57,718 bases of DNA from an uncultured bacterium (lineage in GTDB: Bacteria; Krumholzibacteriota; Krumholzibacteriia; JAJRXK01): contig CAZQHE010000007.1 of the NCBI GenBank assembly GCA_964593155.1, positions 1-57,718 of the forward strand, in the 5' to 3' direction. Below, piece after piece: positions 22,583-57,715 of the stretch. Numbering within the stretch: the first letter of the stretch is position 1; each line of letters opens with the position of its first letter. The notes under the pieces were generated by a model. That model saw nothing but the letters and a program-made list of their open reading frames with translations. It did no database searches and was not told the DNA's origin. The translations under genes and the position numbers were made by a program.

Positions 22583-22655
22583 GTTCGAGCACCGGAACCC
22601 GATGCCCGCGTCCCCGCGCGAAGCACGAACACGACCGAAGTGGAGAGGACGACCC

Positions 22656-23255: not shown

Positions 23256-23274
23256 GAAACACAATAGTTCGAAT

Positions 23275-23934: not shown

Positions 23935-23942
23935 GCGCCTGC

Positions 23943-23958
23943 GGTTTCTCGTGAAACC
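23943..23958. promoter_or_regulatory. parS-like site 2, GGTTTCTCGTGAAACC
   Basis: 13/16 match to consensus, in the extended palindrome GCGGTTTC..GAAACCGC upstream of parA. Confidence 0.6.
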
Positions 23959-24138
23959 GCGAAACGGGCGCTCGAGTTTCCCCCAGCTCAACTCGCTGTC
24001 GTGTCGTCGGTTTCGACTGTTTTCCCCATCTGATCCCCATCCTGGCGCCGCGTGATCGTTGCACGAGCGCCGGGCAACGAGCATTCTGCGCCTACCCTGC
24101 GAATCTCTGCACCGAACCCACCTCGAGACTCCGGAGGC

Positions 24139-24895
<757 letters not shown>

Positions 24896-24921
<26 letters not shown>

Positions 24922-32286: not shown

Positions 32287-33029
32287 ACGGTGTCTCCTTG
32301 CACCATCGACAGGTCGTGGATGCGATCGAGATCGATCGACTCGCGGCAGGCCCGTGCCATGACGTCGACGTCGACCAGACCTTCGATCCGGTCGAGCGTC
32401 CCGAGCACGGGGACTGCGCACATCTCCTCGATCATGGCCGCGTTGTCGTCGACCGACGGATCGTCGGCCGCAGGGTCCCGCCCGTTCAGGACCACACCGA
32501 TCACCGGTGTCGCACGCTCGCGCGCGTAGCGCACGGTGAGGAAGGTGTGGTTGAGGGTTCCCAGGTGGGCACGGGCCACGATCAGCAGGGGGAGTCCGAG
32601 CAGTGTGGCCAGATCCGTGTAATCGAACAAGTGATCATCGTGTCCGAATTCGGCGATGGGCACCGAGAGGCCTCCGGCCCCCTCCACCACCACCACGTCG
32701 TGGCGGGCGGCAATGCGGGTGAAGGCCTCGGCGATGCGCTCGGGCTCGATCACGCGCCCCTCGCGGCGGGCGCCGACCAGCGGGGCGACCGGATCGACGA
32801 AGGTGTAGGGAACCACGGCTCCCAGGGCATCCATGGTCCGCGAGGCCAGGGCCAGCGTGCGCGCGTCGGCCGGCCAGGGACCGGCGACCCGGGGATCGTG
32901 TCCGGTCTCGGCGGGCTTCATCACGCCGACCTCGATGCCCGCGTCGCGCCAGGCGCGGGCGATGCCCGCGGCGACGAAGGTCTTGCCCACGCCGGTGTCG
33001 GTGCCGGTGACCAGCAGGCCGCCGCTCAC
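32283..33029 (-). CDS. bioD: Dethiobiotin synthetase
   Basis: LVTGTDTGVGKT, MKPAETG, VEGAGGL, LGTLNH. GTGA overlap with bioA. Confidence 0.96.
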   Translation of the reverse strand: MSGGLLVTGTDTGVGKTFVAAGIARAWRDAGIEVGVMKPAETGHDPRVAGPWPADARTLALASRTMDALGAVVPYTFVDPVAPLVGARREGRVIEPERIAEAFTRIAARHDVVVVEGAGGLSVPIAEFGHDDHLFDYTDLATLLGLPLLIVARAHLGTLNHTFLTVRYARERATPVIGVVLNGRDPAADDPSVDDNAAMIEEMCAVPVLGTLDRIEGLVDVDVMARACRESIDLDRIHDLSMVQGDTV

Positions 33030-34429: not shown

Positions 34430-35439
34430 GGGTGTCTCTCCTCGTCGGACCGACTCCACTCCACCACCGCGGCCGCCTCCACCAGACCGGCCCCCACGGC
34501 GCTGAGCAGCAGGGTCCCCGGACACGCGGCGAACCGGCGGTGCAACGACAGTGCGGTCGGGATGCTCGCGGCCGAGCTGTTCCCCCAGGTCGGCAGGATG
34601 TCGACGCGGCGCGCGGGGTCGATGCCCAGCTCGTTGCCGGCGCGGTCGAGGATCCGGCGGTTGGCCTGGTGGGGGATCCAGGCGTCGAGGTCGTCCGCCG
34701 TGCGTCCGGCGTCGTCGAGGGCCGCCCGTGAGGAGCGCACCATACCGCGGACGGCCTCCTGGAACACCACCGAACCCCGCTCGATGCGCAGGAAGTGCAG
34801 GCCCTCCTTCAGGGCGTCGGCGTCGAAGGGACGGACGCTGCCGCCGGCGACCACGCGGATCGCGTCGGCGTGGCGGGCGTCGGACCCCACGCGCAGGGAC
34901 CGGATGCGCGCGGCGGGGCCTGCCGTACGCTCGGGAGCGAGGACCACGGCACCCGCGCCGTCGGCGAACACGGCCCGCGACCCCGCGTCGTGGGGATCGA
35001 GCCGGCGGCTCAACACGTTCGAGGCGACCACCAGGACGGGCGTGCCGAAGGCCGTGACCCACCCGGCCCCGACGCCGAGGCCGTACAGGAATCCCGCGCA
35101 CGCCCCGGCCAGGTCGAAGCCGCCCGCGCCGGGCGCGCCGATGCCGGCGGCGACCCGTGGAGCCGTCGGTGGGAGCAGGTGGTCGGGCGTGCTCGTGGCC
35201 AGGACGACCAGGCCGATCGAGCCGGCACCGAGGGCCGCGTCCTCGAGCGCCGCGGCGCCGGCCTCGATGGCCAGGTCCGAACACGCCTGCCCCGGCGAGC
35301 AGATCCGGCGCGCGTGGATACCCGTGCGCCGTTCGATCCATCCCGCCTCGAGGCCGAGTTCCGCCTCGAGTTCGGCGTTGTCCAGCGACACACCCGGACT
35401 TGCGTGGCCGGTCCCGACGATGAATGCTTCGTGAGCCAT
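34426..35439 (-). CDS. bioZ: FabH-like condensing enzyme, BioZ-type (putative pimeloyl-ACP precursor synthase)
   Basis: Cys-His-Asn triad (DLAGACAGF, PHQAN, GNSSAAS); LGLEAGWIERRTGI, ATSTPDHLLPP and NVLSRR resemble BioZ as recalled; first gene of the coupled bio operon. Confidence 0.75.
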   Translation of the reverse strand: MAHEAFIVGTGHASPGVSLDNAELEAELGLEAGWIERRTGIHARRICSPGQACSDLAIEAGAAALEDAALGAGSIGLVVLATSTPDHLLPPTAPRVAAGIGAPGAGGFDLAGACAGFLYGLGVGAGWVTAFGTPVLVVASNVLSRRLDPHDAGSRAVFADGAGAVVLAPERTAGPAARIRSLRVGSDARHADAIRVVAGGSVRPFDADALKEGLHFLRIERGSVVFQEAVRGMVRSSRAALDDAGRTADDLDAWIPHQANRRILDRAGNELGIDPARRVDILPTWGNSSAASIPTALSLHRRFAACPGTLLLSAVGAGLVEAAAVVEWSRSDEERHP

Positions 35440-35476
35440 GCCGAAGGCGGAACCCCGTAGGAAGGGCGAAGGGACG

Positions 35477-36607
35477 ATGGACCGACGGACCTGGGACGAA
35501 CGGCTGCGCGCCGAGGAACGGCAGGGTCTGCGTCGCCGTCTGCCCGACCCGCGGTCCGGGTCCGTCGACCTCGACTTCGCGAGCAACGACTACCTGGGGC
35601 TGCGCCGGGATCCGCGGGTGGTCGCGGCGGCCCACGAGGCCCTCGACCGCGACGGCGTCGGTTCGGGAGCATCGCGTCTGCTCGGTGGAAACGCCACCGC
35701 GCACGTCGAACTCGAAGCCGATCTCGCGCGGTTGAAGGGAACCGACGCGGCGCTGGTCTTCTCGTCCGGATACGCGGCGAATCTAGGCCTGCTGACCGCG
35801 ATCAGCGAACCGGAAGACGTGATCTACTGCGACCGCCTCGACCACGCCAGCCTGGTCGACGGTGCCCGGCTGGCCCGGGCCGAGCTGCGATTCTACCGCC
35901 ACGGAGATCCCGAACACCTCGGCCGGCAGCTCGCCCGACGCCGCGCCGGCGGGCGAGCGTGGGTGGTGACCGACGGCGTGTTCAGCATGGACGGCGTGCT
36001 CGCGCCCCTGCCCGCGATCGCCGAGGTCGCCGGCGAGGCCGGCGCCACGCTGATCGTGGACGACGCGCATGCGACGGGCGTCGTGGGTCCCGAAGGAGCC
36101 GGAACCCTGCGGCACTTCGACCTCGCTCCCGAGGGCATCGTCCAGATGGGCACGTTGTCGAAGGCTCTGGGGTGCCAGGGCGGCTTCGTGGCCGGCCCGG
36201 CGGATCTCGTCGCCTGGCTCGTACAGCGGGCGCGGTCGTTCGTGTACAGCACCGGCCTCGCGCTGCCCATCGCCGCCGCGGCCCGGCGGGCGATCGAACT
36301 CGCCCGCGACGACGACCTGCGCGCACGCCGGCAGCGGTCCTTCGACCGCCTGCACCAGGGTCTGGTGGGTCAGGGATGGACGGTGTGGGGCGAGAGTCCG
36401 GCCCCCATGCTGGCCGTGATCGTCGAGAGTGCCGAGACGGCGGTGTCGCTGTCGGCCGCGTTGGCCGAGCGCGGGGTGGTCGTGCCCGCGATCCGCCCAC
36501 CGACGGTGCCCCGCGACGCCTGCCGTCTGCGGCTGGCCCCCACGGCGGCCATGGACGACGCGGCGATCGATCGCGCGCTCGGGGTGTTCGCGTCGGTGCG
36601 GGGCTGA
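35477..36607 (+). CDS. bioF: 8-amino-7-oxononanoate synthase
   Basis: FASNDYLGL, GSGASRL, FSSGYAAN, DRLDHAS, DGVFSMDG, DDAHATG, GTLSKALG, IRPPTVP. Confidence 0.94.
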   Translation: MDRRTWDERLRAEERQGLRRRLPDPRSGSVDLDFASNDYLGLRRDPRVVAAAHEALDRDGVGSGASRLLGGNATAHVELEADLARLKGTDAALVFSSGYAANLGLLTAISEPEDVIYCDRLDHASLVDGARLARAELRFYRHGDPEHLGRQLARRRAGGRAWVVTDGVFSMDGVLAPLPAIAEVAGEAGATLIVDDAHATGVVGPEGAGTLRHFDLAPEGIVQMGTLSKALGCQGGFVAGPADLVAWLVQRARSFVYSTGLALPIAAAARRAIELARDDDLRARRQRSFDRLHQGLVGQGWTVWGESPAPMLAVIVESAETAVSLSAALAERGVVVPAIRPPTVPRDACRLRLAPTAAMDDAAIDRALGVFASVRG

Positions 36608-39108: not shown

Positions 39109-40044
39109 ATGTCCCGACGCCTGCTGCTCTCCCTGGTCGCGCTCCTCGCCCTCTGCCTGGCGCCGGACGGCGTCCACGCGGCCGAGGCGGCGGATGCGTC
39201 CGACGGCGAACACGGAACCTACGGCAACGGGAAGGAGAAGCACCTCGAGCAGTACGACATGCTCCCGCACCTCTTCCAGGTGCTGCGGTACACGGTGTTC
39301 TCCGACTCCTACGAGTTCTACAAGTATTCGAAGATGTTCGAGGCCCCGTTCTTCGCGGCGCTGGCGGTGCTGTTCCTGAGCCTGGTGGCGCGCCGGCTGT
39401 ACAAGAACCGCTCCGAGCTGCCGGACCGCCTGCAGGCCCTGTTCGAGATCCTCGTCGAGCAGACCCTGAACATCACCAACACGATGATGGGCGAGGAGTA
39501 CGGGCGGAAGTACGCGCCCTTCGTCGCCACCATCTTCGTGTACCTGCTGGTGCAGAACTATTCGGGGATCATTCCGCTGGGCAAGGCGCCGTCGGCGGTC
39601 TTCCTGAACAACTTCTCGATCGCGCTGTGCGTGTTCCTGTACGTGCAGTACACCGGCCTGAAGCGACAGGGGTTCGTCGGCTACCTCCACCACCTGGCGG
39701 GCTCGCCGAACAATCTCGTGGGGTGGTTGCTGGCACCGCTGATGTTCGTGCTCGAGCTCATCGGCGAGTTCGCCAAGCCGATCAGCCTGAGCCTCCGACT
39801 CTTCGGCAACATCTTCGGCAAGGACATGCTGCTGGCCGTGTTCGCGCTGCTGGGGGTGGTCGCGCTGTCGGCGCTGCCGACCGACGGCTGGATCGGGTTG
39901 CCGCTGCACTTCCCGTTCTTCTTCCTGGCCCTCCTCCTCGGGCTCATCCAGGCGGTGGTCTTCGCGCTGCTCACGACCGTCTACATCAGCATGATGTTGC
40001 CGCACGAACACGAGCCGCTGCACGAGGAAGAAGCGCACGCTTGA
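39109..40044 (+). CDS. atpB: F0 subunit a
   Basis: PDRLQALFE, IGEFAKPISLSLRLFGN (essential Arg), GLIQAVVFALLTTVYI. Confidence 0.96.
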   Translation: MSRRLLLSLVALLALCLAPDGVHAAEAADASDGEHGTYGNGKEKHLEQYDMLPHLFQVLRYTVFSDSYEFYKYSKMFEAPFFAALAVLFLSLVARRLYKNRSELPDRLQALFEILVEQTLNITNTMMGEEYGRKYAPFVATIFVYLLVQNYSGIIPLGKAPSAVFLNNFSIALCVFLYVQYTGLKRQGFVGYLHHLAGSPNNLVGWLLAPLMFVLELIGEFAKPISLSLRLFGNIFGKDMLLAVFALLGVVALSALPTDGWIGLPLHFPFFFLALLLGLIQAVVFALLTTVYISMMLPHEHEPLHEEEAHA

Positions 40045-40167
40045 CGAGGTTTTCCGCGGGCTCGATCCCGCACTCCAGGGGCTCCGGCCCCGCATCCGAG
40101 GCGGACGACGTCCGTCGACAACGGAGCTCCGGCTCCACCAAGGGCAGAAGAACAAGGAGAACGTCAC

Positions 40168-40395
40168 ATGGATCTTCTCGGACTCGCCATTCCTCTGGGT
40201 CTGGCCATCACCGGTTTCGGTTGCGCCCTCGGCCTGGGTCGCGCCATCAGTGCGGCCATGGACGCCATGAGCCGCCAGCCCGAGGCCATCGGCCAGATCC
40301 AGACGGCCATGATCATCGGTTGTGCGCTCATCGAGGCCCTCGCCATCTACGCGTTGGTCATCTCGTTCGTGTTGCAGGGCAAGGTCAGCGGTTAG
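40168..40395 (+). CDS. atpE: F0 subunit c
   Basis: GxGxG helix, RQPE loop, ALIEAL (ion-binding Glu). The Na+-type Q...ES/T motif is absent, so probably H+-coupled. Confidence 0.97.
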   Translation: MDLLGLAIPLGLAITGFGCALGLGRAISAAMDAMSRQPEAIGQIQTAMIIGCALIEALAIYALVISFVLQGKVSG

Positions 40396-40424
40396 TCGTC
40401 GTTGCCCTCTCTGCCCTTGCGGTC

Positions 40425-40450
40425 GGGGGTGGTCGGAGTGGACCGCCCCC
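40425..40450 (+). terminator. Stem-loop between atpE and atpF (mRNA stabiliser or attenuator)
   Basis: GGGGGTGGTC-6 nt-GACCGCCCCC. Confidence 0.5.
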
Positions 40451-40522
40451 ACCCGACGTCGAGCGACGTGACGGGGGCACCGTGACACCCAACACTCGCA
40501 GTGGAACGAACGGGGAGTCCCG

Positions 40523-41038
40523 ATGGAAGTTCTGACCAAAGGCCTCGAACTCGTCGACATCGGCAAGATCCTGGTCACGAACGTCATCGCGTTCCTGATC
40601 CTGGTGTGGGTCCTCGCCAAGTACGCGTGGGGCCCGATGATGTCGGTGCTCGACCAGCGCCGCGACAAGATCAAGTCGGAGTACGACGCCGCGGCGGACA
40701 AGCTCGGCGAGGCGGAACAGCTCCGGCAGGACTACGACTCGAAGCTGGCCGAGATCAAGGCGCTCGAGCGCGAGCGCGTGCAGGAAGCGGTCAAGCGAGG
40801 CGAGGAGATCGCCGCCCGCATCGAGCAGGACGCCCGAGACAAGGCCGGCGACTTCATGACCCGGGCCGAGGCGGAACTCGACCGCGAGGTCGGCGCCGCG
40901 CGCCTGGAGCTACGCGAGCAGGTCGTGAGCATGGCCCTGGCCGCGGCCGAGAAGGTCGTCAACGAGAAGCTCGACGACGCCAAGCACCGCGAGCTCGTCG
41001 AGGGTTTCATCCAGGACCTGGGAGACGTTCGTGGCTGA
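40523..41038 (+). CDS. atpF: F0 subunit b
   Basis: FLILVWVLAKYAWGPMMSVLDQRRDKI plus a long charged helix. Confidence 0.95.
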   Translation: MEVLTKGLELVDIGKILVTNVIAFLILVWVLAKYAWGPMMSVLDQRRDKIKSEYDAAADKLGEAEQLRQDYDSKLAEIKALERERVQEAVKRGEEIAARIEQDARDKAGDFMTRAEAELDREVGAARLELREQVVSMALAAAEKVVNEKLDDAKHRELVEGFIQDLGDVRG

Positions 41039-41582
41039 TCCCGTCGTCGCCAGTCGTTACGCGGAGGCCCTGCTCGAGTCGGTCACCGACCCGGGGCAGC
41101 TCGAGACGGTGCAGGAGAACGTCTCGGCGGTGGCCGCGGTCGTCTCGGACAACATCCAGCTCAAGGCCTTTCTCGAGGGGCCGAGCATCGCCGAGGCCGA
41201 CAAGCACGCCATCGTCGAGAAGGTCTTCGGCGACAAGGTCGACCCGATCACGCGTGATTTCCTGCGGCTGCTGCTCGACAAGCACCGCATCGACCACCTC
41301 GCCGACGTCGCCGAGGAGTTCCAGCGACTGGTCGAGGAGCACCGGGGGCAGGTCCGGGTGAAGGTCACCACGGCCGTTGCCCTCGCGCCCGACGTGCTCG
41401 ACCGCCTGAAGCGGGCGCTCGACGTCAGCCTGGGCCTGGACTGCATCCTGGAGACCCGTGTCGACGACCGGGTGATCGGTGGCGTGGTCGCCGTGATCGG
41501 AGATCGCGTGATCGACGGCAGCATCCGCACCGCCCTCGACGAGATGCGCAAGGAGCTCATGGGGGCCCCTCTCTCTTCCTGA
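41031..41582 (+). CDS. atpH: F1 subunit delta
   Basis: [29 protein letters not shown]. Confidence 0.95.
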
Positions 41583-41628
41583 ACCGAACCCGATCCGACT
41601 CGAGGCCGCTCGAACAAGGAGTCCAGCC

Positions 41629-43140
<1,512 letters not shown>

Positions 43141-43143
43141 CGC

Positions 43144-44013
43144 ATGCCTGCCTCGCTGAAGGAACTCGACCGCCGGATCCGGTCGGTCAAGAACACGCAG
43201 CAGATCACGCGGGCCATGAAGATGGTCGCCGCGGCGAAGCTGCGGCGTTCCCAGGACCGCCTGGTCGCGGCCCGGCCCTACGCGGCCAAGCTCGACGAGC
43301 TCCTGCGGGGTCTGGCCGGCACCAGCATCGACCATCCGTTCTTCGAGGAGCGCGAGCTGAAGAAGCGGCTGGTGGTGGTCGTCAGTTCGGACAAGGGCCT
43401 GTGCGGCAGCTACAACGCGAACATCACGCGCGAGGCCGAGCTGTGGCTGAAGGGCCCCGGCGACGACGGCGTCGACAACGTGCTGTACGTCGTCGGGCGG
43501 AAGGCCAACGACTACTTCAAGCGCCGCCGGTGGCCGATCGACACCGCGATCACCGACCTGAACGGGGCCATCGACCTCGGTCGCTTCAACGCGGTGGCCG
43601 ACGAGCTCATGCAGCGCTTCGTCGACGACGAGTTCCAGGAGGTCGTCGTCTTCTACACGCGCTTCGTCTCGACCTTGAGCTACCGTCCCACCCACACCAT
43701 GTTGCTGCCCCTGAAGCCGGCCGAGGAACAGGACGGGGCCGAGGCGACGAGCACCGCCGACTACATCTACGAACCCTCGGCCGAGGCAGTTCTCACCGCT
43801 CTGCTGCCGAAGTCGATCCGCAACCGTGTGTTCAACGCGCTGGCCGAAGCCTTCACGAGCGAACACGGCGCGCGCATGACCAGCATGGGTTCGGCCACGG
43901 ACAACGCCGGGGAGCTGATCGACACCCTGACGTTGTACCGCAACCGTGCCCGCCAGGCCGCGATCACCCAGGAGATCAGTGAGATCGTCGGCGGCGCCAA
44001 CGCGCTCGCCTGA
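43144..44013 (+). CDS. atpG: F1 subunit gamma
   Basis: QITRAMKMVAAAKL, SDKGLCGSYN, SEHGARM, RQAAITQEI. Confidence 0.98.
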   Translation: MPASLKELDRRIRSVKNTQQITRAMKMVAAAKLRRSQDRLVAARPYAAKLDELLRGLAGTSIDHPFFEERELKKRLVVVVSSDKGLCGSYNANITREAELWLKGPGDDGVDNVLYVVGRKANDYFKRRRWPIDTAITDLNGAIDLGRFNAVADELMQRFVDDEFQEVVVFYTRFVSTLSYRPTHTMLLPLKPAEEQDGAEATSTADYIYEPSAEAVLTALLPKSIRNRVFNALAEAFTSEHGARMTSMGSATDNAGELIDTLTLYRNRARQAAITQEISEIVGGANALA

Positions 44014-44021
44014 ACGTCTGA

Positions 44022-45452
<1,431 letters not shown>

Positions 45453-46836: not shown

Positions 46837-47061
46837 GTCGACTCGCGGGGGCGGGGCACGGGGACTGTGGCTCCGATATCGGCACGTCGCGCACCGGGGT
46901 GAGAAGATAATCCCATGTGGACGATTCGCCGCACGGCAGCCGTCGGACGCGCGGCCGGACCGGCCACCTCGTCCGTGACCCCGTCCCCATCGGGCGTTAG
47001 GCTTCGTACGCCGGCGACGGCGCGCGCCGCCGGCCGTTCCGACCCACGCCGAGAGAAGACC

Positions 47062-47937
47062 ATGAGCGAGCACGACCCCGCGATCCAGGGCTGGCAGCCC
47101 CTGCCGACCGTCCATCCCGACGCCTTGACCGAGGCCCGCCTGCAGCTGCACTGGGCGGCGCAGGTCCTGGCCTCGATCGGTTACACGCACCTGCAGCAGG
47201 CCGACGACGACGGCCAGAGCAACATGGGCTGGGTCGACGGCATGCAACTGCTGGCCGGCCGCTACCTCGACGACGAGCCCACGGGCTTCGGGTCGATGAC
47301 GCCGGCGGCGCTGAAGTTGGCCTTCCACGAGCCGGGCGGCGAGGAGATCGTCCCCATCGAGCTGCGCGGACGGACCCTCGACGAGGCCTACGAGGCGATG
47401 GAGTCCGCCATCGCCGAGCGCCGGAACCAGCCGAAGCAGACGCTGAAGCGGCCGTCGTACGACCTGCCCGACCACCCGGTGGCCGACGGGGCAAAGTTCG
47501 GCGATGCAACCGAAGCGGCGCTGAAAGCCTTGCACGCGTGGTTCCACGATGCCAACCTCGTCATGCGTGATCTGCGGGCGAAGACCGAGGGCGCCACGCT
47601 CCCCCGCGTGTGGCCCCACCACTTCGACATGGGCATGCTGATCTCGCTCGAGGGGCACGGCGATCCGCAGAAGGGCCGCTCGATCGGAATCGGCCTGAGC
47701 CCCGGCGACGACAGCGACGCCGCCCCGTACTGGTACGTGGCCCCCTACCCGACTCCCGACCTGGGAGGCGACGCGCCCGAGCCGGCCGTCGGCGAGTGGA
47801 CCACCCAGGGCTTCGTGGGCATGAAGCTCGACGCCGTCACCGCCATCGGCGACGGGGCCGGACCCGGTCAGGAGTCCTTGGCGCGCGAGTTCGTCGGTGA
47901 CGCGGTCGCGGTGTGCCGGCGCCTGCTCGGAACCTGA
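47062..47937 (+). CDS. Hypothetical protein (possibly DUF5996-like)
   Basis: ARLQLHWAAQ, DDGQSNMGW, PRVWPHHFD, PYWYVAPYP; coding-type codon bias. Confidence 0.6.
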   Translation: MSEHDPAIQGWQPLPTVHPDALTEARLQLHWAAQVLASIGYTHLQQADDDGQSNMGWVDGMQLLAGRYLDDEPTGFGSMTPAALKLAFHEPGGEEIVPIELRGRTLDEAYEAMESAIAERRNQPKQTLKRPSYDLPDHPVADGAKFGDATEAALKALHAWFHDANLVMRDLRAKTEGATLPRVWPHHFDMGMLISLEGHGDPQKGRSIGIGLSPGDDSDAAPYWYVAPYPTPDLGGDAPEPAVGEWTTQGFVGMKLDAVTAIGDGAGPGQESLAREFVGDAVAVCRRLLGT

Positions 47938-49907: not shown

Positions 49908-49962
49908 GACGCAAACGTCCCCTCCGACACCTCATCCGGAGAAAGCCGAGGTTTCATCCCGG

Positions 49963-50000
49963 CTTAACTCCGCCCTCACACACGGTCACTAGACTGTCGC
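49963..50000 (+). promoter_or_regulatory. Pho-box-like direct-repeat array
   Basis: CGGTCAC-TAGA-CTGTCGC (11-bp period), with further TAAC (49965) and TCAC (49976) half-site cores at 11/10-bp spacing. Confidence 0.4.
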
Positions 50001-50154
50001 CCGTCCGATACTCGACACATCCGGACGCGCTCGAAAAAACCACCTTCCACTCCGAGCACTCCCGGTCCGGTCGGTTCCGACCCGGGCCGGAACGGATCGT
50101 TCGGTTCGCCGACGATTTCGCCTCTCTCTGCTCCTCTTGGAGGTACCCTACACC

Positions 50155-53100
50155 ATGATTCGTCAGCTCAAGGGCATTGGTCTCTTGGCTCTCGGACTGG
50201 TCGTGCTCGCCGGCCCCGCGTTCGCGCAGGGCATCATCTACGACTCGAACATCCTGTTCGGGAACAACGGTGGCGGCACGCAGTTCGACACCGACGTCGG
50301 TTCCGGTGGCGACACCGAAGCCTTCGTCACGAGCAACTTCTCGCGAAACCTGATCGGCGTCGATCCCCTGCTGGAGTCCACGTACAACTCCATCGAGGGT
50401 CCCTGGCGCCCCACCTCTGGCAGCCCCGCGGTCTTCGGCAACACCGGCGCGGTGCAGCTGCTCAAGGCCTCCGACCTCGACCCCTTCTTCGACGACGTGC
50501 CCTACGCGGGCGCGCTCAGCCCGGATCCGGACGAGGACTGGACCCGCGGCGGCTGGCTCTACACCAACACCGATGGCGGCCTCGGCCGTGACGACATCGA
50601 CTTCGGCCTGCCCGTCGTCACCGTCAGCGGCAACGTTCCGCCGGGCACCACCTGGACCGCCGACAACCGCTACGAACTCGTCGGCCGGGTGACCGTGCCC
50701 GACGGCGTGACCCTGGTCATCGAGCCGGGCGTCGTCGTGACCGGCTCGCCGGGCACCAACGCCTACCTGGCCGTCGACCGCGGTGGTCGGGTGCAGGCCG
50801 TGGGTACGGCGCAGGAGCCGATCATCTTCACCTCCGGCGCTCCGCTGGGCTCGCAGGCCCCGGGCGACTGGTCGGGTGTGCTGATCAACGGCCGCGCCGT
50901 TGCCAACTGCGACATCGACCCGTCGGCCTCGGTGGACTGCCGCGCCACCAACGATCCGGCGGGGCCCTTCAGCTGTGAGTCCGAGGGCAACGGTGGCCTC
51001 TTCGGTGGCACCGACGACGCCGACGACAGCGGTATCCTGCGCTACGTGCGCTCGGAGTACGCCGGTCTCGAGATCAGCCCGAACAACGAGCTGAACGCCT
51101 TCACGTTCAACGCCGTCGGCACGGGCACGACGCTGGAGTTCCTGCAGACCTTCCGCAGCACCGACGACCACTTCGAGTGGTTCGGTGGCGCGGTGCGCAG
51201 CCGTTGGTTCGTGGCCCTCGAGGGCGACGACGACGGTCTGGACTGGCAGCTCGGCTACCGCGGCCGTCACCAGTACGCCATCGTGACCGCCCTGAGCGAT
51301 CAGAACGAGGGCGGCGCGAACCCGACCGGGGCCAACCCCGAGAAGGGGATGGAGTGCGACAACAACGAGGACGACAACGAGTGCCCGAGCGAGTCCGACG
51401 GCATCGTGTCCAACGTCACGCTGATCGGCGGCAGCACCCAGCGCGGTGACAGCAGCACCGGCACCAACTTCCGCCGCGGCACCAACGGTGGTGTGGTCAA
51501 CAGCATCATCGTGGATTTCGACGGGGTTGGCTTCGACATGGACGGGGCGGCGACCTTCGCCAACGGCGTCCGGTCGACCATTCCGGCCGACTTCCAGCCG
51601 GTCGACCCGACCGCCGGAGGCATCACCTTCGACGGCAACTTCCTGTGGAACAACAACGGTGGCGGCACGCAGTACGACACCGACGCGGGCAGCGGTGGCA
51701 ACACCGAGGACTTCGTCACCAGCAACTTCGTGAACAACAGCATCCAGGATCCCCGTCTCGATCCGGACTACACGGTGATCGACGACGGCGGCAACTGGAA
51801 CCTGCAGTCCGACAGCCCCGCGCTGTTCAAGAACGGTGCGTCGTTGCTCCGCGTGAGCGACATCGATCCGTTCTTCGAGGATCGTCAGCACGCCGGTGCC
51901 CTGAGCGACGGCGCGGCGGCCTGGACGCAGGGGTGGATCTACGCCGACCTCGACGGTGGTGCGAGCCGCACCGACATCGACCCGGGTCTGCCGGTCGTGA
52001 CCGTCAGCGGCAACGTCGCGCCGGGAACCACCTGGACGGCCGCCAACCGCTACGAGCTGGTCGGCCGTGTGACGGTGGCCGACGGCGTCACCCTGACGAT
52101 CGAGCCGGGTGTCGTGGTGACCGGTTCGCCGGGCACCAACGCCTACCTGGCCGTCGACCGCGGTGGCCGCATCGAGGCCGAGGGCACCGCCGACCAGCCG
52201 ATCATCTTCACCTCCGGCGCTCCGCTGGGCTCGCAGGCCCCGGGCGACTGGTCGGGTGTGCTGATCAACGGCCGCGCCGTTGCCAACTGCGACATCGACC
52301 CGTCGGCCTCGGTGGACTGCCGCGCCACCAACGATCCGGCGGGGCCCTTCAGCTGTGAGTCCGAGGGCAACGGTGGCCTCTTCGGTGGCACCGACGACGC
52401 CGACGACAGCGGTATCCTGCGCTACGTGCGCTCGGAGTACGCCGGTCTCGAGATCAGCCCGAACAACGAGCTGAACGCCTTCACGTTCAACGCCGTCGGC
52501 ACGGGCACGACGCTGGAGTTCCTGCAGACCTTCCGCAGCACCGACGACCACTTCGAGTGGTTCGGTGGTGCGGTCAAGAGCCGCTACTTCGTCGGCCTCG
52601 AGGGCGACGACGACGGTCTGGACTGGCAGCTCGGCTACCGTGGCCGCCACCAGTTCGCCGTGATCACCGCCCTCGGTCTCGACGGTGCCAACCCCGAGAA
52701 GGGGATGGAGTGCGACAACAACGAGGACGACAACGAGTGCCCGAGCGAGTCGAACGGTATCGTGGCCAACGTCACCCTGATCGGTGGCAACGAGGGTCGC
52801 GGTACCAGCAGCACGGGCATCAACTTCCGGCGCGGGACCAACGGCGGCGTGTTCAACAGCGTCATCGTGGACTTCGCCGGGGTCGCCTTCGACATGGACA
52901 GCGCGGCCACCTTCGCCAACGGCGTCGGTCCCCGTCCGGCTCTGCAGTCGGTGGGCACCGTCACCACGGGCATCGAGGGTGGTATCTCGAACTCCGCGTT
53001 CAACGTGAGCTTCGCGCCGAATCCGGTCCAGGCCGGCAACGGCATGTTCCGCTTCACGCTGCCGAAGTCGAGTGACGTGCAGGTCCGCGTGTTCAACGCG

Positions 53101-53256
53101 CGTGGTCGCCTGGTCGACACGGTCTTCTCGGGCCGTCTCGACGCGGGTACCCGCGAGCTGAGCTGGACCCCCCGCAACCAGGCCAACGGCGTGTACTTCT
53201 ACCAGGTGCAGGCCGGCGGTCAGGTCGCTTCGGGCAAGCTCATGCTCGTGAACTAG
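50155..53256 (+). CDS. Large secreted acidic protein with two tandem beta-helix-like units and a C-terminal T9SS/FlgD-like domain
   Basis: Signal peptide (AFA-Q); repeated TTWTA.NRYELVGRV, PGDWSGVLING, DDSGILRYVRSEYAG, DDHFEWFGG; tail FAPNP...VFNARGRLV...GVYFYQV. Confidence 0.85.
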   Translation: MIRQLKGIGLLALGLVVLAGPAFAQGIIYDSNILFGNNGGGTQFDTDVGSGGDTEAFVTSNFSRNLIGVDPLLESTYNSIEGPWRPTSGSPAVFGNTGAVQLLKASDLDPFFDDVPYAGALSPDPDEDWTRGGWLYTNTDGGLGRDDIDFGLPVVTVSGNVPPGTTWTADNRYELVGRVTVPDGVTLVIEPGVVVTGSPGTNAYLAVDRGGRVQAVGTAQEPIIFTSGAPLGSQAPGDWSGVLINGRAVANCDIDPSASVDCRATNDPAGPFSCESEGNGGLFGGTDDADDSGILRYVRSEYAGLEISPNNELNAFTFNAVGTGTTLEFLQTFRSTDDHFEWFGGAVRSRWFVALEGDDDGLDWQLGYRGRHQYAIVTALSDQNEGGANPTGANPEKGMECDNNEDDNECPSESDGIVSNVTLIGGSTQRGDSSTGTNFRRGTNGGVVNSIIVDFDGVGFDMDGAATFANGVRSTIPADFQPVDPTAGGITFDGNFLWNNNGGGTQYDTDAGSGGNTEDFVTSNFVNNSIQDPRLDPDYTVIDDGGNWNLQSDSPALFKNGASLLRVSDIDPFFEDRQHAGALSDGAAAWTQGWIYADLDGGASRTDIDPGLPVVTVSGNVAPGTTWTAANRYELVGRVTVADGVTLTIEPGVVVTGSPGTNAYLAVDRGGRIEAEGTADQPIIFTSGAPLGSQAPGDWSGVLINGRAVANCDIDPSASVDCRATNDPAGPFSCESEGNGGLFGGTDDADDSGILRYVRSEYAGLEISPNNELNAFTFNAVGTGTTLEFLQTFRSTDDHFEWFGGAVKSRYFVGLEGDDDGLDWQLGYRGRHQFAVITALGLDGANPEKGMECDNNEDDNECPSESNGIVANVTLIGGNEGRGTSSTGINFRRGTNGGVFNSVIVDFAGVAFDMDSAATFANGVGPRPALQSVGTVTTGIEGGISNSAFNVSFAPNPVQAGNGMFRFTLPKSSDVQVRVFNARGRLVDTVFSGRLDAGTRELSWTPRNQANGVYFYQVQAGGQVASGKLMLVN
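50816..51188 (+). repeat. Copy 1 of a 373-bp exact direct repeat
   Basis: Line-by-line identical to 52196-52568 (offset 1380 bp). Confidence 0.95.
52196..52568 (+). repeat. Copy 2 of a 373-bp exact direct repeat
   Basis: Line-by-line identical to 50816-51188. Confidence 0.95.
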
Positions 53257-53262
53257 TTCGAT

Positions 53263-53290
53263 CGGGTTCGGGGCTGCGACCCCGGACTCG
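53263..53290 (+). terminator. Stem-loop between the surface-protein gene and the TBDR gene
   Basis: CGGGTTCGGGG-6 nt-CCCCGGACTCG with no U-tract. Confidence 0.5.
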
Positions 53291-53450
53291 GCGGTACGCA
53301 ACGCCGCGCCGCATCATGACCGAACGCACCACGCGCGGCGTGCGGCCGAACCCGGGGTGGGGCAGTCGGAAGACTGTCCCACCTCCTGGCGTCCAGACCC
53401 TGTGTTCCGGTGACCGGAATCCGGTCGCCCCACCTCGAAGAGAGGCCCCC

Positions 53451-56400
53451 ATGCGTGGTGTTCTTCGTCTCCCGAGCTGCGCGGCGATCACGACGATCGT
53501 CTTCGGGATCGTCCTCCTGGCCGGCACCGCCGGCGCCTCGTCCCAGCACACCCCCGGGATGAGCCTGACCGCCGAGATCCTCGCCGAGAACGCCCCGGCC
53601 CTGCAGGGGTCCGGTGCCACGACGGCGGCGGAGAGCGCATCCGACACCAGCGCGGCCGACAGTACGGCCGCCGGCACGCCCTCGCCCGTTCCGTCCAACG
53701 CCCCCGGAACCATCACCGGCCACGTGCGCGACGCAGAGTCGGGCCGGGGCCTGCCCTACACCAACATCATCCTCGATCGCGTTCGCGAGAGCGGCGATCC
53801 CGAGCAGACCGGCGGCAGCATCGCCCTGACCGGCGGGCAGTACTTCGCCCGCGTGGCGCCCGGTACCTACGAGGTGTCGTTCCTGTACCTGGGCTACGAG
53901 ACCTTCACGGCCGAGGACGTCGTCGTCGAGCCCGGCTCGACCGTGACGCTCGACGTCGAGATGACCGTGAAGCCGATCGAGTTCACGGCCATGACCGTCC
54001 AGGCGCAGAAGATCACCAACACCGCGGTGGCGCAGCTGCAGGAGAAGAAGCGCGCGACCGCGGTGCAGGAGGCGATCACCGCCGAGGAGATCAGCAAGAG
54101 CACCGACTCCGACGCCGCCGAGGCCCTCGAGCGCGTCACCGGCCTGAGCGTGGTGGGCGGCAAGTTCGTCTTCGTGCGCGGGCTCGGCGATCGGTACAGC
54201 TCGACCACGCTGAACGGCGCGCCCCTGAGTTCTCCCGAGCCCAGCCGAAACACCGTGCCGCTCGACATCTTTCCGGCGGCCATGCTCGACAACATCGTCG
54301 TGCAGAAGGCCTTCACGCCCGACATGGACGGGAACTTCGGCGGCGGCAACATCGACGTGCGCACCCGCCGCGGCGTGGACGAGCGCGTGTTCCAGCAGAA
54401 GATCTCCTACGGCTTCGACCAGAGCGTGATCGACAACGACTTCCTCACCTACGAGGGTGGCGCGACCGACCTGCTGGCGCGCGACGACGGCACGCGCGGA
54501 TTCCCCCGCCTGCTCGAGGCCTACGAGAACAAGAGCTTCACCGCGGCGAACGCCACCGAGGCCGAGCAGTTCGCCGCCACCTTCTCGTTCCCGAACGTCT
54601 GGACCCCGAAGCGCGTCGAGGGCCCGCCGAACTTCGGCTACTCCGGCCTGTTCAGTGATTCCTTCGAGATCGAGGGCCGCCGTGGCAGCGTGCTGGCGGC
54701 CGCGTCGTACAGCCACGGCGCCAAGACCGAGGACTACGAGCAGTACGTGATCCGTACCGACGAGATCGCCCCGCCCAAGCAGCAGGCCACCACCCTGCGC
54801 TCCGAGCGCTCCGTTCTGCTGGGCGTGACCGGCGCCGTCGTCTTCCAGCCGACCACCGGCACCAACCTGCAGTACAACGTGCTGTACACCCGCAGTGGCG
54901 AGGATCAGGCCTACACCTCGGTCGGCCGGACCGACAGCGAGGAGACCCAGTACCTCAGCCACACCCTGAAGTTCGTCGAGCGCGACCTGCTGACCCACGT
55001 CCTGCAGGGCCGCCACACCGTTGGTCCGCACGGCTCCGAACTGCACTGGATGGGCTCGACGTCGAGCGCGACCCGGAACGAGCCGGACAACCGCTACAGT
55101 CGATTCGCCTGGGCCAACAGCGACCGCCGCGTGAGCGACAGCGGCGAACAGTACAACGTGGGAGTGTGGACCCAGCCGAACATCGCCAGCGGCTTCCAGC
55201 GCCTGTTCGGGGAAACCGACGAGAACGCCCAGGCCTTCCGCGTGAACTGGGACCTGGTCCTGCCCGAGAAGCCGTGGGTGAAGCGTCGCCTGAAGCTCGG
55301 TTTCGGCTACCGCCAGCGCGAGCGCGACGAGGGCTACCGCCGCTTCCTCATCCGCAAGCCCTCGCCATCGGCCTACGTCGAGGCGGGCGGCGCAGGTCGG
55401 GCCGAGGACATCTTCGAGCTGTCGAGCTTCGCCGATCCCGTCGACGCCCTGCGCCTGTCGAAGACCGAGGAGTTGACCAACCCCTACGACGCGTACGACG
55501 CCCAGCAGGAGATCACCGCGCTCTACGCGATGCTCGACCTCGACTTCTTCGAGACCCTGCGCATGACTGGCGGTGCCCGCTTCGAGAGCAACCAGCAGGT
55601 CGCGAGTTCCCTGAGCCTGAACGGTGCCGAGGCCGGCCTGCCCAGTATCGAGGCCGACGCCAGCGCCGAGGACTGGCTGCCCGCGCTGAACCTGACGTGG
55701 CGCACCACCGACCGCATGCAGTTCCGCGGCGGCTACAGCCGCACTCTCAACCGTCCGCAGCTCCGCGAGCTCGCCGGCCTGCGCATCTTCGACTTCGACG
55801 CCGACGAGGTCGTGTCGGGCAATCCGTTCCTGCGGGCCGCCACCGTCGACGCCTTCGACTTCCGCTGGGAGATCTTCCCTGCGCCCCGCAGCTACGCCGC
55901 CCTGAGCTTCTTCGACAAGACCATCGACAACGCGATCCTCACCAACTTCACCAACCAGGCCGGTGGCGGCCTCGTGCTCTACCCCGCCAACGGTGAGCAG
56001 GACGGATCGCTGCGTGGCTGGGAGGTCGAGTGGCGCGGCCCGATCGACGACGTGCTGTGGGCCTCGCGCCAGGCCGCCGTGTCCGGGGCGTGGCTCGCCA
56101 CCCGCCCGTTCTGGCTGATCGGTCAGATCCCCGGCCTGTCCGCCCTCGGCGACTGGACCCCCGACCACCGCCTGACCGGCGCCGTCGAGGTGCCCGCTCT
56201 GCGCAACTGGGGTTTCACCTTCAACTACTCGGGGATCTCGTCGTCCATCGACCTCGATCCCGTGCGCGCCGAGAACGAGCTCTTCAACGTGGTCGATCCC
56301 GACGGCAACCCTCTGCCCAGCCCCGACGGCACCGAGGTCCAGGAGAACCGCCTGACCGGCCAGGCCGACTCGGCCTTCAATCTGGGCCTGTTCTACGGCA

Positions 56401-56690
56401 ACGGGAACCAGGACTTCTCGCTGCTGTTCAAGGACTTCGGACTGCGGCAGGAGTCGGCGGCCCTGCAGACCTTCGTCGATCCACCGCTCATCGTGGACGC
56501 GGCCTTCTCCACGCGGCTCGGCCCCAACGCCCGGCTGAAGTTGTCCGTCGAGGACATCTTTCCGCAGGACGTCGAGGAGTTCTACGACGACATCCTCATG
56601 GAGCGTGTCGACGGATCCACCTTCGACACCCGCCGCCTCGTCCGCGCGGTCGGCCCCAAGTACGGAGCTTCGATCAGTTACGACTTCTGA
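53451..56690 (+). CDS. TonB-dependent outer-membrane receptor with N-terminal carboxypeptidase-regulatory-like domain
   Basis: Signal peptide, GTITGHVRDAESG, plug ITAEEI...DAAEALERVTGLSV...VRGLGDRY...LDIFP, YSRTLNRPQ.RE, GNP.L, terminal YDF. Confidence 0.93.
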   Translation: MRGVLRLPSCAAITTIVFGIVLLAGTAGASSQHTPGMSLTAEILAENAPALQGSGATTAAESASDTSAADSTAAGTPSPVPSNAPGTITGHVRDAESGRGLPYTNIILDRVRESGDPEQTGGSIALTGGQYFARVAPGTYEVSFLYLGYETFTAEDVVVEPGSTVTLDVEMTVKPIEFTAMTVQAQKITNTAVAQLQEKKRATAVQEAITAEEISKSTDSDAAEALERVTGLSVVGGKFVFVRGLGDRYSSTTLNGAPLSSPEPSRNTVPLDIFPAAMLDNIVVQKAFTPDMDGNFGGGNIDVRTRRGVDERVFQQKISYGFDQSVIDNDFLTYEGGATDLLARDDGTRGFPRLLEAYENKSFTAANATEAEQFAATFSFPNVWTPKRVEGPPNFGYSGLFSDSFEIEGRRGSVLAAASYSHGAKTEDYEQYVIRTDEIAPPKQQATTLRSERSVLLGVTGAVVFQPTTGTNLQYNVLYTRSGEDQAYTSVGRTDSEETQYLSHTLKFVERDLLTHVLQGRHTVGPHGSELHWMGSTSSATRNEPDNRYSRFAWANSDRRVSDSGEQYNVGVWTQPNIASGFQRLFGETDENAQAFRVNWDLVLPEKPWVKRRLKLGFGYRQRERDEGYRRFLIRKPSPSAYVEAGGAGRAEDIFELSSFADPVDALRLSKTEELTNPYDAYDAQQEITALYAMLDLDFFETLRMTGGARFESNQQVASSLSLNGAEAGLPSIEADASAEDWLPALNLTWRTTDRMQFRGGYSRTLNRPQLRELAGLRIFDFDADEVVSGNPFLRAATVDAFDFRWEIFPAPRSYAALSFFDKTIDNAILTNFTNQAGGGLVLYPANGEQDGSLRGWEVEWRGPIDDVLWASRQAAVSGAWLATRPFWLIGQIPGLSALGDWTPDHRLTGAVEVPALRNWGFTFNYSGISSSIDLDPVRAENELFNVVDPDGNPLPSPDGTEVQENRLTGQADSAFNLGLFYGNGNQDFSLLFKDFGLRQESAALQTFVDPPLIVDAAFSTRLGPNARLKLSVEDIFPQDVEEFYDDILMERVDGSTFDTRRLVRAVGPKYGASISYDF

Positions 56691-56721
56691 TTCCCGGTGA
56701 TCCCCGGAAGGAACGATCCCC

Positions 56722-57663
56722 ATGAACCGCAACGTCGCGTTCGCACTCGTCGCGATCGTCCTGATCGTCGGTGCCGTCCTCTACTTCGGCGGGACCGGTG
56801 AAGACACCACGGACCTCGATTCCGACCCGACGTCCGAGGTCACCGACGCCGGCGATGCCGCCGCCGACGGTGCCGAGGAGTCGACGCCGACCTCCGACCC
56901 GGAGCCCGTCGGCGCCGTTGCCGAGTCGCAGCAGGAACCCGGTGTGATCTACGACGAGAACGGCGTCGCCGTCGGTGGCGTCGAGCCTCGACCCTCGGGC
57001 ACGCCGCTGAACATCGACTACATCATCGAGTACCACGAGAACCACACCTTCGTGAGCAACGACGGTCGCGACACCTTCACCGTCCCCCTGCCCGACGATC
57101 CTCGCTGGCCCGACTACCTGGAATTCCGCCGCGCGTTCCCCTCGATGAACGACAACTCCAAGGGCTATGCCATCGCCTACGACCCCGAATGGCGATCGGT
57201 GCTGCGCGGTTACCGCGAGGTCCCCGAACCCGGCATGGAGCTCTTCGGCGGCGCCGACACCCTCCGCGGACTGATCCAACGCGTACTCGACGAGATCGAG
57301 GCCGAGAACGACTACGGCCTCGTCGACCTCGCGATCACCAAGGAGGAGTTCGAGATCATCTGCTGGCCGTCGTTCCCCCAGGCCCGCCCCTACACCCTGG
57401 CCTACTGGACCGATGCGTGGCGCTTCCAGTACGCCAACATCCTGAGCGGGATCCGCGAGGGGAAGCTGGAGGCCGGTGGGCGCGGGTGGGATCTGGAGAG
57501 CATTGCGTACGACGAGATCGAGGACTTCCAGCACTTCCGTTTGTACAACGGCGTGAAGGTGCGGGCAAAGGATCGGGAGACGGGGGAGGTGCGGGAGTTT
57601 CGCTGGGTGGATTCGGTGATCGAGAAGAGCGGCACCTTCAAGGTCTACATGTATAAAAACTGA
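56722..57663 (+). CDS. Hypothetical protein with N-terminal membrane anchor and acidic linker
   Basis: Hydrophobic N-terminus, D/E/T/S-rich linker, globular C-terminus; starts 31 bp after the TBDR gene. Confidence 0.7.
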   Translation: MNRNVAFALVAIVLIVGAVLYFGGTGEDTTDLDSDPTSEVTDAGDAAADGAEESTPTSDPEPVGAVAESQQEPGVIYDENGVAVGGVEPRPSGTPLNIDYIIEYHENHTFVSNDGRDTFTVPLPDDPRWPDYLEFRRAFPSMNDNSKGYAIAYDPEWRSVLRGYREVPEPGMELFGGADTLRGLIQRVLDEIEAENDYGLVDLAITKEEFEIICWPSFPQARPYTLAYWTDAWRFQYANILSGIREGKLEAGGRGWDLESIAYDEIEDFQHFRLYNGVKVRAKDRETGEVREFRWVDSVIEKSGTFKVYMYKN

Positions 57664-57681
57664 TCTGCCTCGATGATTGTT

Positions 57682-57715
57682 CATGGCCCCGGATTCGCAA
57701 GGATCCGGGGTCATG
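57682..57715 (+). terminator. 15-bp stem-loop with GCAA tetraloop closing the TBDR locus
   Basis: CATGGCCCCGGATTC-GCAA-GGATCCGGGGTCATG. Confidence 0.65.

Follow-up and report, generated by a model that had tools for sequence, protein, structure and literature searches.

A three-gene operon predicted to encode an ElpS-type TonB-dependent uptake system with a type IX-tailed surface partner

Three co-oriented genes at the end of a bacterial contig

The window analyzed here is a complete contig of 57,718 nt with ~68% G+C (CAZQHE010000007.1 of GenBank assembly GCA_964593155.1) from an uncultured bacterium. Three co-oriented genes on the + strand, G1, G2 and G3, occupy its last 7.6 kb and encode an exported surface protein, a TonB-dependent receptor and an anchored extracytoplasmic protein. 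A previous reading of the letters alone (hereafter, the sequence-only reading) had singled out these genes, and they are real: the G+C content at third codon positions (GC3) is 0.88-0.90 for all three, which is typical of coding sequence in a window of 68% G+C.

50155..53256, + strand: G1, ATG start at 50155, 1033 aa, exported surface protein
53451..56690, + strand: G2, ATG start at 53451, 1079 aa, TonB-dependent receptor
56722..57663, + strand: G3, 313 aa, anchored extracytoplasmic protein

Judged from the short gaps (31 nt between G2 and G3), the conserved intercistronic elements and the hairpin at the end, G1-G2-G3 is most likely one operon. The start of G2 was placed at the ATG at 53451, which is preceded by a GAGAGG ribosome-binding site. 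An alternative start at the first ATG of the open reading frame (ORF), at 53316, was rejected because 53257-53450 aligns to two orthologous loci with frame-breaking indels; given these indels and the conserved RNA hairpin inside it, this stretch was considered non-coding.

G1 is a tandem beta-helix protein with a type IX sorting domain

G1 combines a signal peptide, two modules of the Beta_helix_4 family and a C-terminal sorting domain of the type IX secretion system (T9SS).

50155..50226, + strand: G1 signal peptide, 24 aa, cleaved between AFA and QG, read directly from the sequence
50224..51570, + strand: Beta_helix_4 module 1, aa 24-472
51613..52923, + strand: Beta_helix_4 module 2, aa 487-923
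53017..53244, + strand: T9SS type A C-terminal sorting domain with an Ig-like beta-sandwich fold, from TIGR04183 and Foldseek

The signal peptide (MIRQLKGIGLLALGLVVLAGPAFA, followed by QG) is of the classical Sec type and was called by direct reading of the sequence; a lipobox scan of G1 found no cysteine and no lipobox at this signal. The two modules, ~450 aa each, share 78% mutual identity, and the motifs DDSGILRYVRSEYAG and DDHFEWFGG, both quoted in the sequence-only reading, each occur twice in the protein. The modules were assigned to PF28492 (Beta_helix_4) via annotated relatives and not by a direct scan of G1: the match is precomputed on 120 of the 120 G1 relatives listed from a 5.8-billion-protein collection, one of them 96% identical to G1. 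In Pfam and NCBIfam scans of G1 itself, the C-terminal domain was the only part matched, and no pectate-lyase or glycoside-hydrolase family was found. This domain matched TIGR04183 with 36.6 bits (E 3.2e-9, cutoff 23), while the Pfam models Por_Secre_tail and FlgD_ig were just under their cutoffs (21.3 bits for PF18962, cutoff 27). The earlier description of a partner protein with a cleavable signal and a C-terminal sorting domain in place of a lipobox is borne out by these results.

An AlphaFold2 model of module 2 with the tail (66 sequences, mean predicted local distance difference test (pLDDT) score of 91) consists of a long right-handed beta-helix, a 12-residue linker of low confidence and an Ig-like sandwich. 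By Foldseek against the PDB, the sandwich resembles the C-terminal domains (CTDs) of T9SS cargo, namely 8qb1_A (mirolase) and 8glk_D (NucA, T9SS translocon complex), with target-normalized template modeling (TM) scores of 0.67-0.69. A G1 sequence search against PDB chains gave no informative match, the best being the left-handed helix of an acetyltransferase (E 0.027). On successive coils of the modeled helix, invariant acidic residues recur about every 23 residues (N289, DD312-313, DD334-335 and E367/D369 in model numbering). Metal-assisted binding grooves in pectate-lyase-like helices show such an arrangement of residues, and the acidic ladder suggests a groove bridged by metal (Ca2+ or Mg2+) for an anionic phosphorus-containing ligand.

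Most relatives of G1 are lipobox-anchored, including those in most Bacteroidota, Gemmatimonadota and Myxococcota loci and in L006, a locus of proteobacterial type, whereas G1 of the window and its near relatives have a Sec signal and a T9SS tail in place of the lipobox. The same replacement beside the same receptor was found in at least 12 Bacteroidota loci (Hymenobacter, Chryseobacterium, Saprospiraceae and others) and in one Ignavibacteria locus, so the tail is a recurrent alternative and not a lineage peculiarity. The number of modules in Beta_helix_4 proteins ranges from 1 to 4.

At the DNA level, a tract of 373 nt is identical between the two G1 modules (50816-51188 and 52196-52568), and the remainder of the modules is 45-92% identical in 60-nt windows. 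The two-module orthologues in L001, L088, L002 and L089 have own modules that are 77-89% identical as DNA; between clades, G1 orthologues are merely 41-45% identical as protein. The likeness of modules within each protein points to gene conversion (concerted evolution) or to duplication that happened repeatedly. In Logan, contigs end at the internal repeat and so neither confirm nor refute the identical tract; they also show two variant positions that have the same offset in each module, and partial assembly collapse is possible. A segment of the form Y-x-G-A-(F/L)...DWT-x-GW precedes each beta-helix of G1 on the N-terminal side (50155-50560) and is found at the extreme C-terminus of Flavobacterium lipoproteins (L031 7896-9290, P0365). 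As this segment swaps ends between the two, the module seems to be circularly permuted with respect to the anchor.

G2 is a TonB-dependent receptor outside the SusC family

53709-53966, + strand: G2 CarboxypepD_reg domain
54048-54329, + strand: G2 Plug domain
54855-56537, + strand: G2 barrel

The Plug (PF07715, E 4e-11) and barrel (PF00593, E 3e-24) matches give G2 the Plug plus 22-strand barrel of a TonB-dependent receptor, and the plug contains the VRGLGDRY motif by which the sequence-only reading had recognized it. The nearest curated subfamily is TIGR01782, with 245 bits and thus under the cutoff of 310. The SusC family model does not match G2 in Pfam or NCBIfam, and the same scans of G2 and its neighbors found no SusD gene in or beside the operon, in line with the earlier remark that SusD is missing here. 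G2 is 26% identical (E 3e-56) to the receptor encoded next to the Beta_helix_4 gene of Flavobacterium caseinilyticum. Between the signal peptide and the CarboxypepD_reg domain (within 53451-53700) lies a low-complexity stretch of ~80 residues rich in Ala, Ser, Thr and Pro, owing to which G2 is ~100 aa longer than most receptors of its type.

G3 is strictly linked to the receptor in one large set of lineages

G3 starts with a transmembrane helix (aa 3-22) and a disordered acidic linker (aa 23-58), followed by a small beta domain and a conserved C-terminal domain of ~175 aa. No Pfam or NCBIfam model matched G3, no precomputed Pfam match is recorded on any of its relatives, and a sequence search against PDB chains gave E 0.25 or worse. 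In the structural model (pLDDT 82), the C-terminal domain is formed by three helices packed on a sheet of 6-7 strands. The top Foldseek matches are NTF2-like (3hx8, 3k7c, the PBP2a N-terminal domain and LEH) and weak, with E of at least 0.065 and query-normalized TM scores of at most 0.24.

The C-terminal ~175 aa are conserved in triads whose G1 proteins are 41-47% identical. A profile search of 1.84 billion representatives with G3 gave 583 clusters at E <=1e-3 and 240 at E <=1e-10, and a metagenome scan with a 91-sequence G3 alignment yielded 80 loci at 30-38% G3 identity. Among the metagenome loci, all 38 whose upstream DNA extends to 1.2 kb or more have a receptor gene immediately upstream of G3 on the same strand, and 13 of the 14 with at least 4.6 kb have a Beta_helix_4 gene beyond the receptor. 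The synteny survey of the three genes that had been suggested as a check thus found G3 co-conserved. The order partner-receptor-G3 was found in the window and in L001-L005, L008, L088 and L089, while the Gemmatimonadota loci have the order receptor-partner-G3. In a survey of 88 loci, the pair occurs without G3 in all Bacteroidota, Myxococcota and proteobacterial loci. Among 110 full-length representatives, 76 have a hydrophobic anchor or signal and 23 a lipobox at the N-terminus, and the family is therefore extracytoplasmic. G3 is exported or anchored, and within one large group of lineages it is found downstream of the receptor without exception.

Two further genes were observed near the partner gene in other loci. 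A lipoprotein of ~190 aa without a known family follows the partner gene in L031 (9356-9922), L170 (10482-11045) and seven other Bacteroidota loci. It was considered as a G3 homologue and rejected (hhalign probability 3%), being an unrelated protein in the same position. A conserved gene of 204-206 aa, also without a family, lies immediately upstream of the partner gene in L004 (7346-7960) and L122 (1322-1942), and operons of this type may have four genes.

The receptor and its partner belong to a widespread, published type of pair

A pattern and tblastn scan of one genome per GTDB species detected Beta_helix_4 proteins in at least 592 species. The hosts are Bacteroidota (including the genera Pedobacter, Chitinophaga, Flavobacterium, Hymenobacter, Chryseobacterium and Parabacteroides), Gemmatimonadota, Myxococcota, Acidobacteriota, Ignavibacteria, Balneolaceae and Candidatus Eisenbacteria. 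A receptor with homology to G2 (phmmer E-values from 1e-22 to 1e-144) adjoins the Beta_helix_4 gene on the same strand in 82 of the 88 loci surveyed, which come from at least 7 phyla, usually in the order receptor, then partner. This bears out the statement in the sequence-only reading that receptors of this subtype are paired with a protein carrying the quoted motifs. One G1 module is 37% identical (BLASTP, E 6e-53) to the Beta_helix_4 protein of F. caseinilyticum, whose locus has the order Porin_O_P, PHO4, histidine kinase, response regulator, receptor and Beta_helix_4. This is the published layout of Fjoh_0542-0546 (PMC8115612). A search with a Flavobacterium member of the family gave at least 4496 relatives, with none named F. 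johnsoniae among the 120 matches listed.

By family membership, the G1-G2 pairing is of the type already published as ElpS/CC0171, FII/Fjoh_0545 and BT4056/BT4055. ElpS (CC0170) of Caulobacter crescentus is a surface lipoprotein made on phosphate starvation and encoded beside the receptor CC0171 (Le Blastier et al. 2010, PMC2996285). In Flavobacterium johnsoniae, the receptor Fjoh_0545 and the lipoprotein Fjoh_0546 ("FII") are encoded within the phoBR cluster (Lidbury et al. 2020, PMC8115612). Both are induced by depletion of inorganic phosphate (Pi) with log2 fold changes of 8-10, as had been stated for some Bacteroidota in the sequence-only reading; a second pair, "FI", is Fjoh_3856/3857, and FI/FII are related to ElpS (PMC8115612). 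In Bacteroides thetaiotaomicron, BT4056 was proposed as a non-SusD lid of the receptor BT4055 (Price et al. 2023, 10.1101/2023.03.17.533168). It was stated to be homologous to Fjoh_0546 and ElpS and to belong to no Pfam family; AlphaFold-Multimer placed it on the outer face of BT4055, and pairs of this type are adjacent in 621 genera (10.1101/2023.03.17.533168). A full-text literature search for "Beta_helix_4" returned no paper, and a 2026 preprint on PusCD does not mention FI, FII or ElpS.

The window locus shares with ElpS/CC0171 a surface-exposed protein of the G1 family (as judged from the homology stated in the papers and from the Pfam family) beside a TonB-dependent receptor, and the co-occurrence of both genes across genomes was already noted for that pair (PMC2996285). 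ElpS differs in being a single-module lipoprotein of ~50 kDa with the lipobox LAGC that is released by a protease dependent on the type II secretion system (T2SS) and encoded beside T2SS genes, whereas G1 has two modules, no lipobox and a T9SS CTD, and is accompanied by G3. Fjoh_0545/0546 have the same receptor architecture (CarboxypepD_reg, Plug and barrel) and the same partner family as G2 and G1. They are arranged receptor first with a single-module lipoprotein as partner, within a phoBR-OprP-PHO4 cluster that has no G3 but an unrelated ~190-aa lipoprotein downstream. BT4055/BT4056 is the same pair, and its 621 genera agree with the at least 592 species found here; Price et al. (2023) described lipoproteins only, and no T9SS-tailed, multi-module or three-gene form.

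The principle of a TonB-dependent barrel with a substrate-capturing, surface-tethered partner encoded alongside is shared with SusC/SusD. There, however, the tether is a lipid and SusD is alpha-helical and similar to tetratricopeptide repeat (TPR) proteins, whereas G1 is a beta-helix tethered by a T9SS CTD and G2 lies outside the SusC family. With T9SS type A cargo (for example, gingipains, mirolase and NucA), G1 shares a Sec signal and an Ig-like CTD of ~80 aa (TIGR04183). The known cargo are mostly enzymes and adhesins, and our literature search found no description of a T9SS cargo that serves as the dedicated partner of a TonB-dependent receptor. What is new here is the T9SS-tailed tandem partner, the strictly linked G3 family without a database family and the conserved intercistronic RNA structure. 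The sequence-only reading is partly supported; it is largely right but less new than its author thought, as the locus does match a published pair, and one of the refuting conditions named there thereby applies in part.

Gene neighborhoods in other genomes link the pair to phosphate

Phosphate-related genes recur around the pair in other loci. In the Flavobacterium loci, PhoR/PhoB-like two-component genes stand next to the receptor, along with OprP and PHO4, and in L006 the pair is flanked by PhoX and PHO4. A homologue of the PitA-like phosphate transporter recurs in 6 loci, with an accessory gene of the TIGR00153 family beside it in 4 of the 6. Among the loci with G3, L135 has the order PhoR-like histidine kinase, partner, receptor, G3, two unknown genes and PstS-PstC-PstA-PstB-PhoU (PstS at 388 bits, cutoff 205). 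The G3 gene of L063 precedes PstS (347 bits), and a divergent pst-phoU operon lies alongside; in L055, a PhoB-like regulator comes after G3. The system is called phosphate-related because of these gene neighborhoods and the two expression studies cited above.

The two genes between G3 and pstSCAB-phoU in L135 (7107-8929) are on the same strand and encode proteins of 135 aa and 472 aa without known family. In L006 (4881-15925, probably proteobacterial), the pair is followed by a DUF3450 gene, two MotA/ExbB genes, ExbD, TonB and a TPR protein, which as a group form a dedicated TonB energizing set.

Conserved elements upstream of and between the genes

The regions upstream of G1 and between G1 and G2 were compared with the orthologous loci L001 and L088, whose G1 proteins are 76-78% identical to G1 of the window.

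49953..49979, + strand: three repeats phased at 11 nt upstream of G1, TTCAT-N6-TTAAC-N6-CTCAC, with conserved columns
49983..50000, + strand: Pho-like box CGGTCACTAGACTGTCGC, two mismatches to CTGTCAY-N4-CTGTCAY
49988..50024, + strand: 37-nt block with almost no change between the window, L001 and L088, containing GTCGC-N6-GATAC
53258..53294, + strand: hairpin directly after the G1 stop codon, -23.2 kcal/mol, z -2.5
53354..53385, + strand: intercistronic 14-bp stem-loop GGGGUGGGGCAGUC-GGAA-GACUGUCCCACC(UCC), -32 kcal/mol, z -3.1
57682..57715, + strand: terminal hairpin with a 15-bp stem, -28.4 kcal/mol, z -3.9, located 3 nt from the end of the contig

The TTxA, TTAA and TCA columns of the phased repeats are invariant in the window, L001 and L088 while the flanks diverge, and a CTTAAC-like word is also present upstream of G1 in L002, L003 and L088. 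OmpR/PhoB-type regulators bind phased direct repeats, and the repeats at 49953-49979 are a candidate binding array for a regulator of this type. The uniqueness of the phased pattern in the window is not an independent test, as the pattern was derived from the same sequence. The Pho-like box that the sequence-only reading had placed in front of the genes is present at 49983 with its two mismatches. It is part of GTCAC-N6-GTCGC-N6-GATAC (49985-50011), its first half-site differs in L001 and L088, and the window has one match with two mismatches, where dinucleotide shuffles of the window gave 12 +/- 3.4 matches to CTGTCAY-N4-CTGTCAY at up to 3 mismatches. A similar phased array, GTGAC-N6-GTGAC-N6-GTTAC, occurs in the pstS promoter in L063. 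The window, L001 and L088 share the same 25-nt core of the 37-nt block, which occurs once in the window and in none of the 168 other loci, and the block is probably a core promoter or operator. A long leader up to the G1 ribosome-binding site is also conserved across the three loci.

Between G1 and G2 there are two hairpins, where one had been described. The hairpin directly after the G1 stop is replaced by different hairpin-forming sequence at the same position in the orthologues. The stem-loop at 53354-53385 is unique in the window; its stem persists in L001 and, through compensatory changes, in L088. A scan with Rfam found no known RNA family in the operon region, including this stem-loop. 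The strong hairpin reported at the end of the locus was recovered at 57682-57715, and it is probably the operon terminator. A scan for sigma-70 promoters found none, and no T-tract terminators were found at the gene ends, the tail of the 57682-57715 hairpin lying outside the contig.

Proposed function and alternative explanations

Taken together, we consider the locus to be one operon that encodes a TonB-dependent uptake system of the ElpS type, with a probability of roughly 0.6. Its most likely function, by analogy with the published pairs and the neighborhoods in other genomes, is TonB-driven phosphorus scavenging, and its expression is probably controlled by phosphate. G1 would cross the inner membrane by Sec and then be exported by the type IX system, to be held at the cell surface via its C-terminus, whereas its published relatives are held via an N-terminal lipid. 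On or beside the extracellular face of G2, the G1 modules would capture the substrate as a non-SusD "lid", as proposed for BT4056, and G2 would import the ligand with TonB energy. G3, on its membrane anchor and a flexible linker of ~35 residues, may act in the periplasm as an acceptor or partner and pass the ligand, or phosphate freed from it, toward Pst-type uptake. The intercistronic stem-loop probably keeps G1 in excess over G2, via partial termination or protection of the upstream transcript.

Three other explanations were weighed against this phosphorus-uptake reading, and all of them fit the neighborhood data worse. G1 could be a pectate-lyase- or polygalacturonase-like enzyme, or a binder of acidic polysaccharides, with G2 importing the oligomers, in a SusD-less analogue of a polysaccharide utilization locus. 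The modeled right-handed beta-helix of G1 would suit such a glycan system, as would the placement of relatives in the pectin-lyase superfamily by InterPro, the modeling of FI/FII on a fungal polygalacturonase by Lidbury et al. (PMC8115612) and the acidic ladder, which also fits Ca-dependent binding of polyuronates. Yet the Pfam and NCBIfam scans found no pectate-lyase or glycoside-hydrolase family in G1, and no solved enzyme matched it by sequence or fold. The recurrent neighbors of the pair are Pho genes, while no carbohydrate-active enzymes, sugar transporters or sugar kinases recur around it, and for the published relatives a response to Pi, along with repression when N or Fe is limiting, has been described (PMC8115612). 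We thus regard a glycan system as unlikely. To much the same degree, we doubt that the system takes up another scarce nutrient (a metal chelate, cofactor or peptide) and that phosphate enters only at the level of regulation, within a general response to starvation. TonB-dependent receptors of the size of G2 import many substrate classes, Caulobacter CC0171 is constitutively expressed, unlike elpS (PMC2996285), and the window is without Pho genes; against this, genes for iron, cobalamin or siderophores show no conservation near the pair across the 88 loci, and Pst, PhoU, PhoR/PhoB, PHO4, PhoX and OprP genes are its neighbors in several phyla.

The remaining explanation concerns G3, which could be an unrelated neighbor (for example, a cell-envelope protein encoded downstream), leaving G1-G2 as the functional unit. 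Such a bystander would explain why G3 is missing from all Bacteroidota, Myxococcota and proteobacterial loci of the pair and why Bacteroidota often have the unrelated ~190-aa lipoprotein in its place. It is harder to reconcile with the receptor immediately upstream in 38 of 38 testable loci at a G3 identity of just 30-38%, with the linkage under both gene orders (BH4-TBDR-G3 and TBDR-BH4-G3, where BH4 is Beta_helix_4 and TBDR the TonB-dependent receptor) and with the gap of just 31 nt to G2, and we rate it slightly below the other two.

Several points weigh against the phosphorus-uptake reading itself. The sequencing-run look-up gave DNA runs or runs of unrecorded type, and no RNA run with the organism. 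Within the 57.7-kb window, the scans of ORFs with Pfam and NCBIfam found no Pho gene anywhere, and the operon's neighbors are a pyridoxal-phosphate (PLP)-dependent decarboxylase gene and housekeeping genes; the phosphate link of this locus is drawn from homology and from neighborhoods elsewhere. The Pho-like box is no evidence alone, as a match of this kind is not above chance in the shuffles. No component of the T9SS machinery (SprA, PorV, PorU, GldKLMN) was found among the scanned ORFs of the window. The beta-helix body of G1 has no close solved structure by Foldseek against the PDB, with a single weak match to a tailspike (probability 0.28), and the NTF2-like fold assignment of G3 is weak. 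G1 is connected to ElpS, Fjoh_0546 and BT4056 by way of the Pfam family, the arrangement of the loci and the homology stated in the papers. For the published pairs, the tie between ElpS and raised extracellular phosphatase activity is indirect (PMC2996285), and mutants of BT4055/4056 had no phenotype in 519 conditions (10.1101/2023.03.17.533168). Our search found no literature that establishes a substrate for any member of the pair, and no functional study after Price et al. (2023).

A broader proposal can be made tentatively, and we hold it with considerably less confidence than the uptake reading. G3 would be an undescribed third component of ElpS-type systems, an anchored acceptor in the periplasm, obligatory for Gemmatimonadota, for Eisenbacteria-like lineages and for many lineages from soil, which ties import across the outer membrane to the handling of phosphate (Pst). 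The T9SS-tethered, multi-module G1 would be a covalently linked "double lid" for two receptor barrels, and the whole a three-part importer distinct both from SusCD and from the two-gene ElpS pair.

After SusCD, few outer-membrane uptake modules are as widespread as the ElpS-type pair, which occurs in at least 592 species here and in 621 genera in the published survey (10.1101/2023.03.17.533168) and is among the Flavobacterium loci most strongly induced by phosphate starvation (PMC8115612). That its surface partner can be held by either of two unrelated tethers, lipid or T9SS, argues that surface display beside the receptor is the selected property. The module number of 1-4 and a whole branch with strictly linked G3, sometimes directly before pstSCAB-phoU, offer handles on the family, and such variant features make the phosphate hypothesis and the periplasmic ligand path directly testable. 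The system has a bearing on phosphorus scavenging in sediments and soils.

Source organism and genomic surroundings

The named relatives with the T9SS-tailed, partner-first form belong to Candidatus Eisenbacteria / Eiseniibacteriota. Among GTDB species representatives, no relative of G1 above 37% identity was found, which makes the phylum assignment tentative. The look-up found near-identical sequence in runs from sediment, microbial mat, hypersaline lake and tidal-flat metagenomes.

Upstream of the operon, the window contains the PLP-dependent decarboxylase gene, an ATP synthase operon (39109-45452), biotin genes (31267-35704), parAB and the dnaA-dnaN-recF-gyrB-gyrA origin cluster. The neighborhood of the chromosomal origin (10312-19390 and 20762-25813) comprises gyrA, gyrB, recF, dnaN and dnaA on the - strand, and yidC, a KH/R3H protein gene, parA and parB on the + strand; a bactofilin gene is also on the contig. 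An ORF of 340 aa at 46915-47937 (+) has coding-like GC3 and no Pfam or NCBIfam match, and its position is occupied by a gene of 287-292 aa in L001 and L088. On the - strand, 8707-10257 encodes an exported-looking protein of 516 aa that ends in a FlgD_ig-type domain (E 3e-9) and may be a second C-terminal-domain cargo protein of the same organism.

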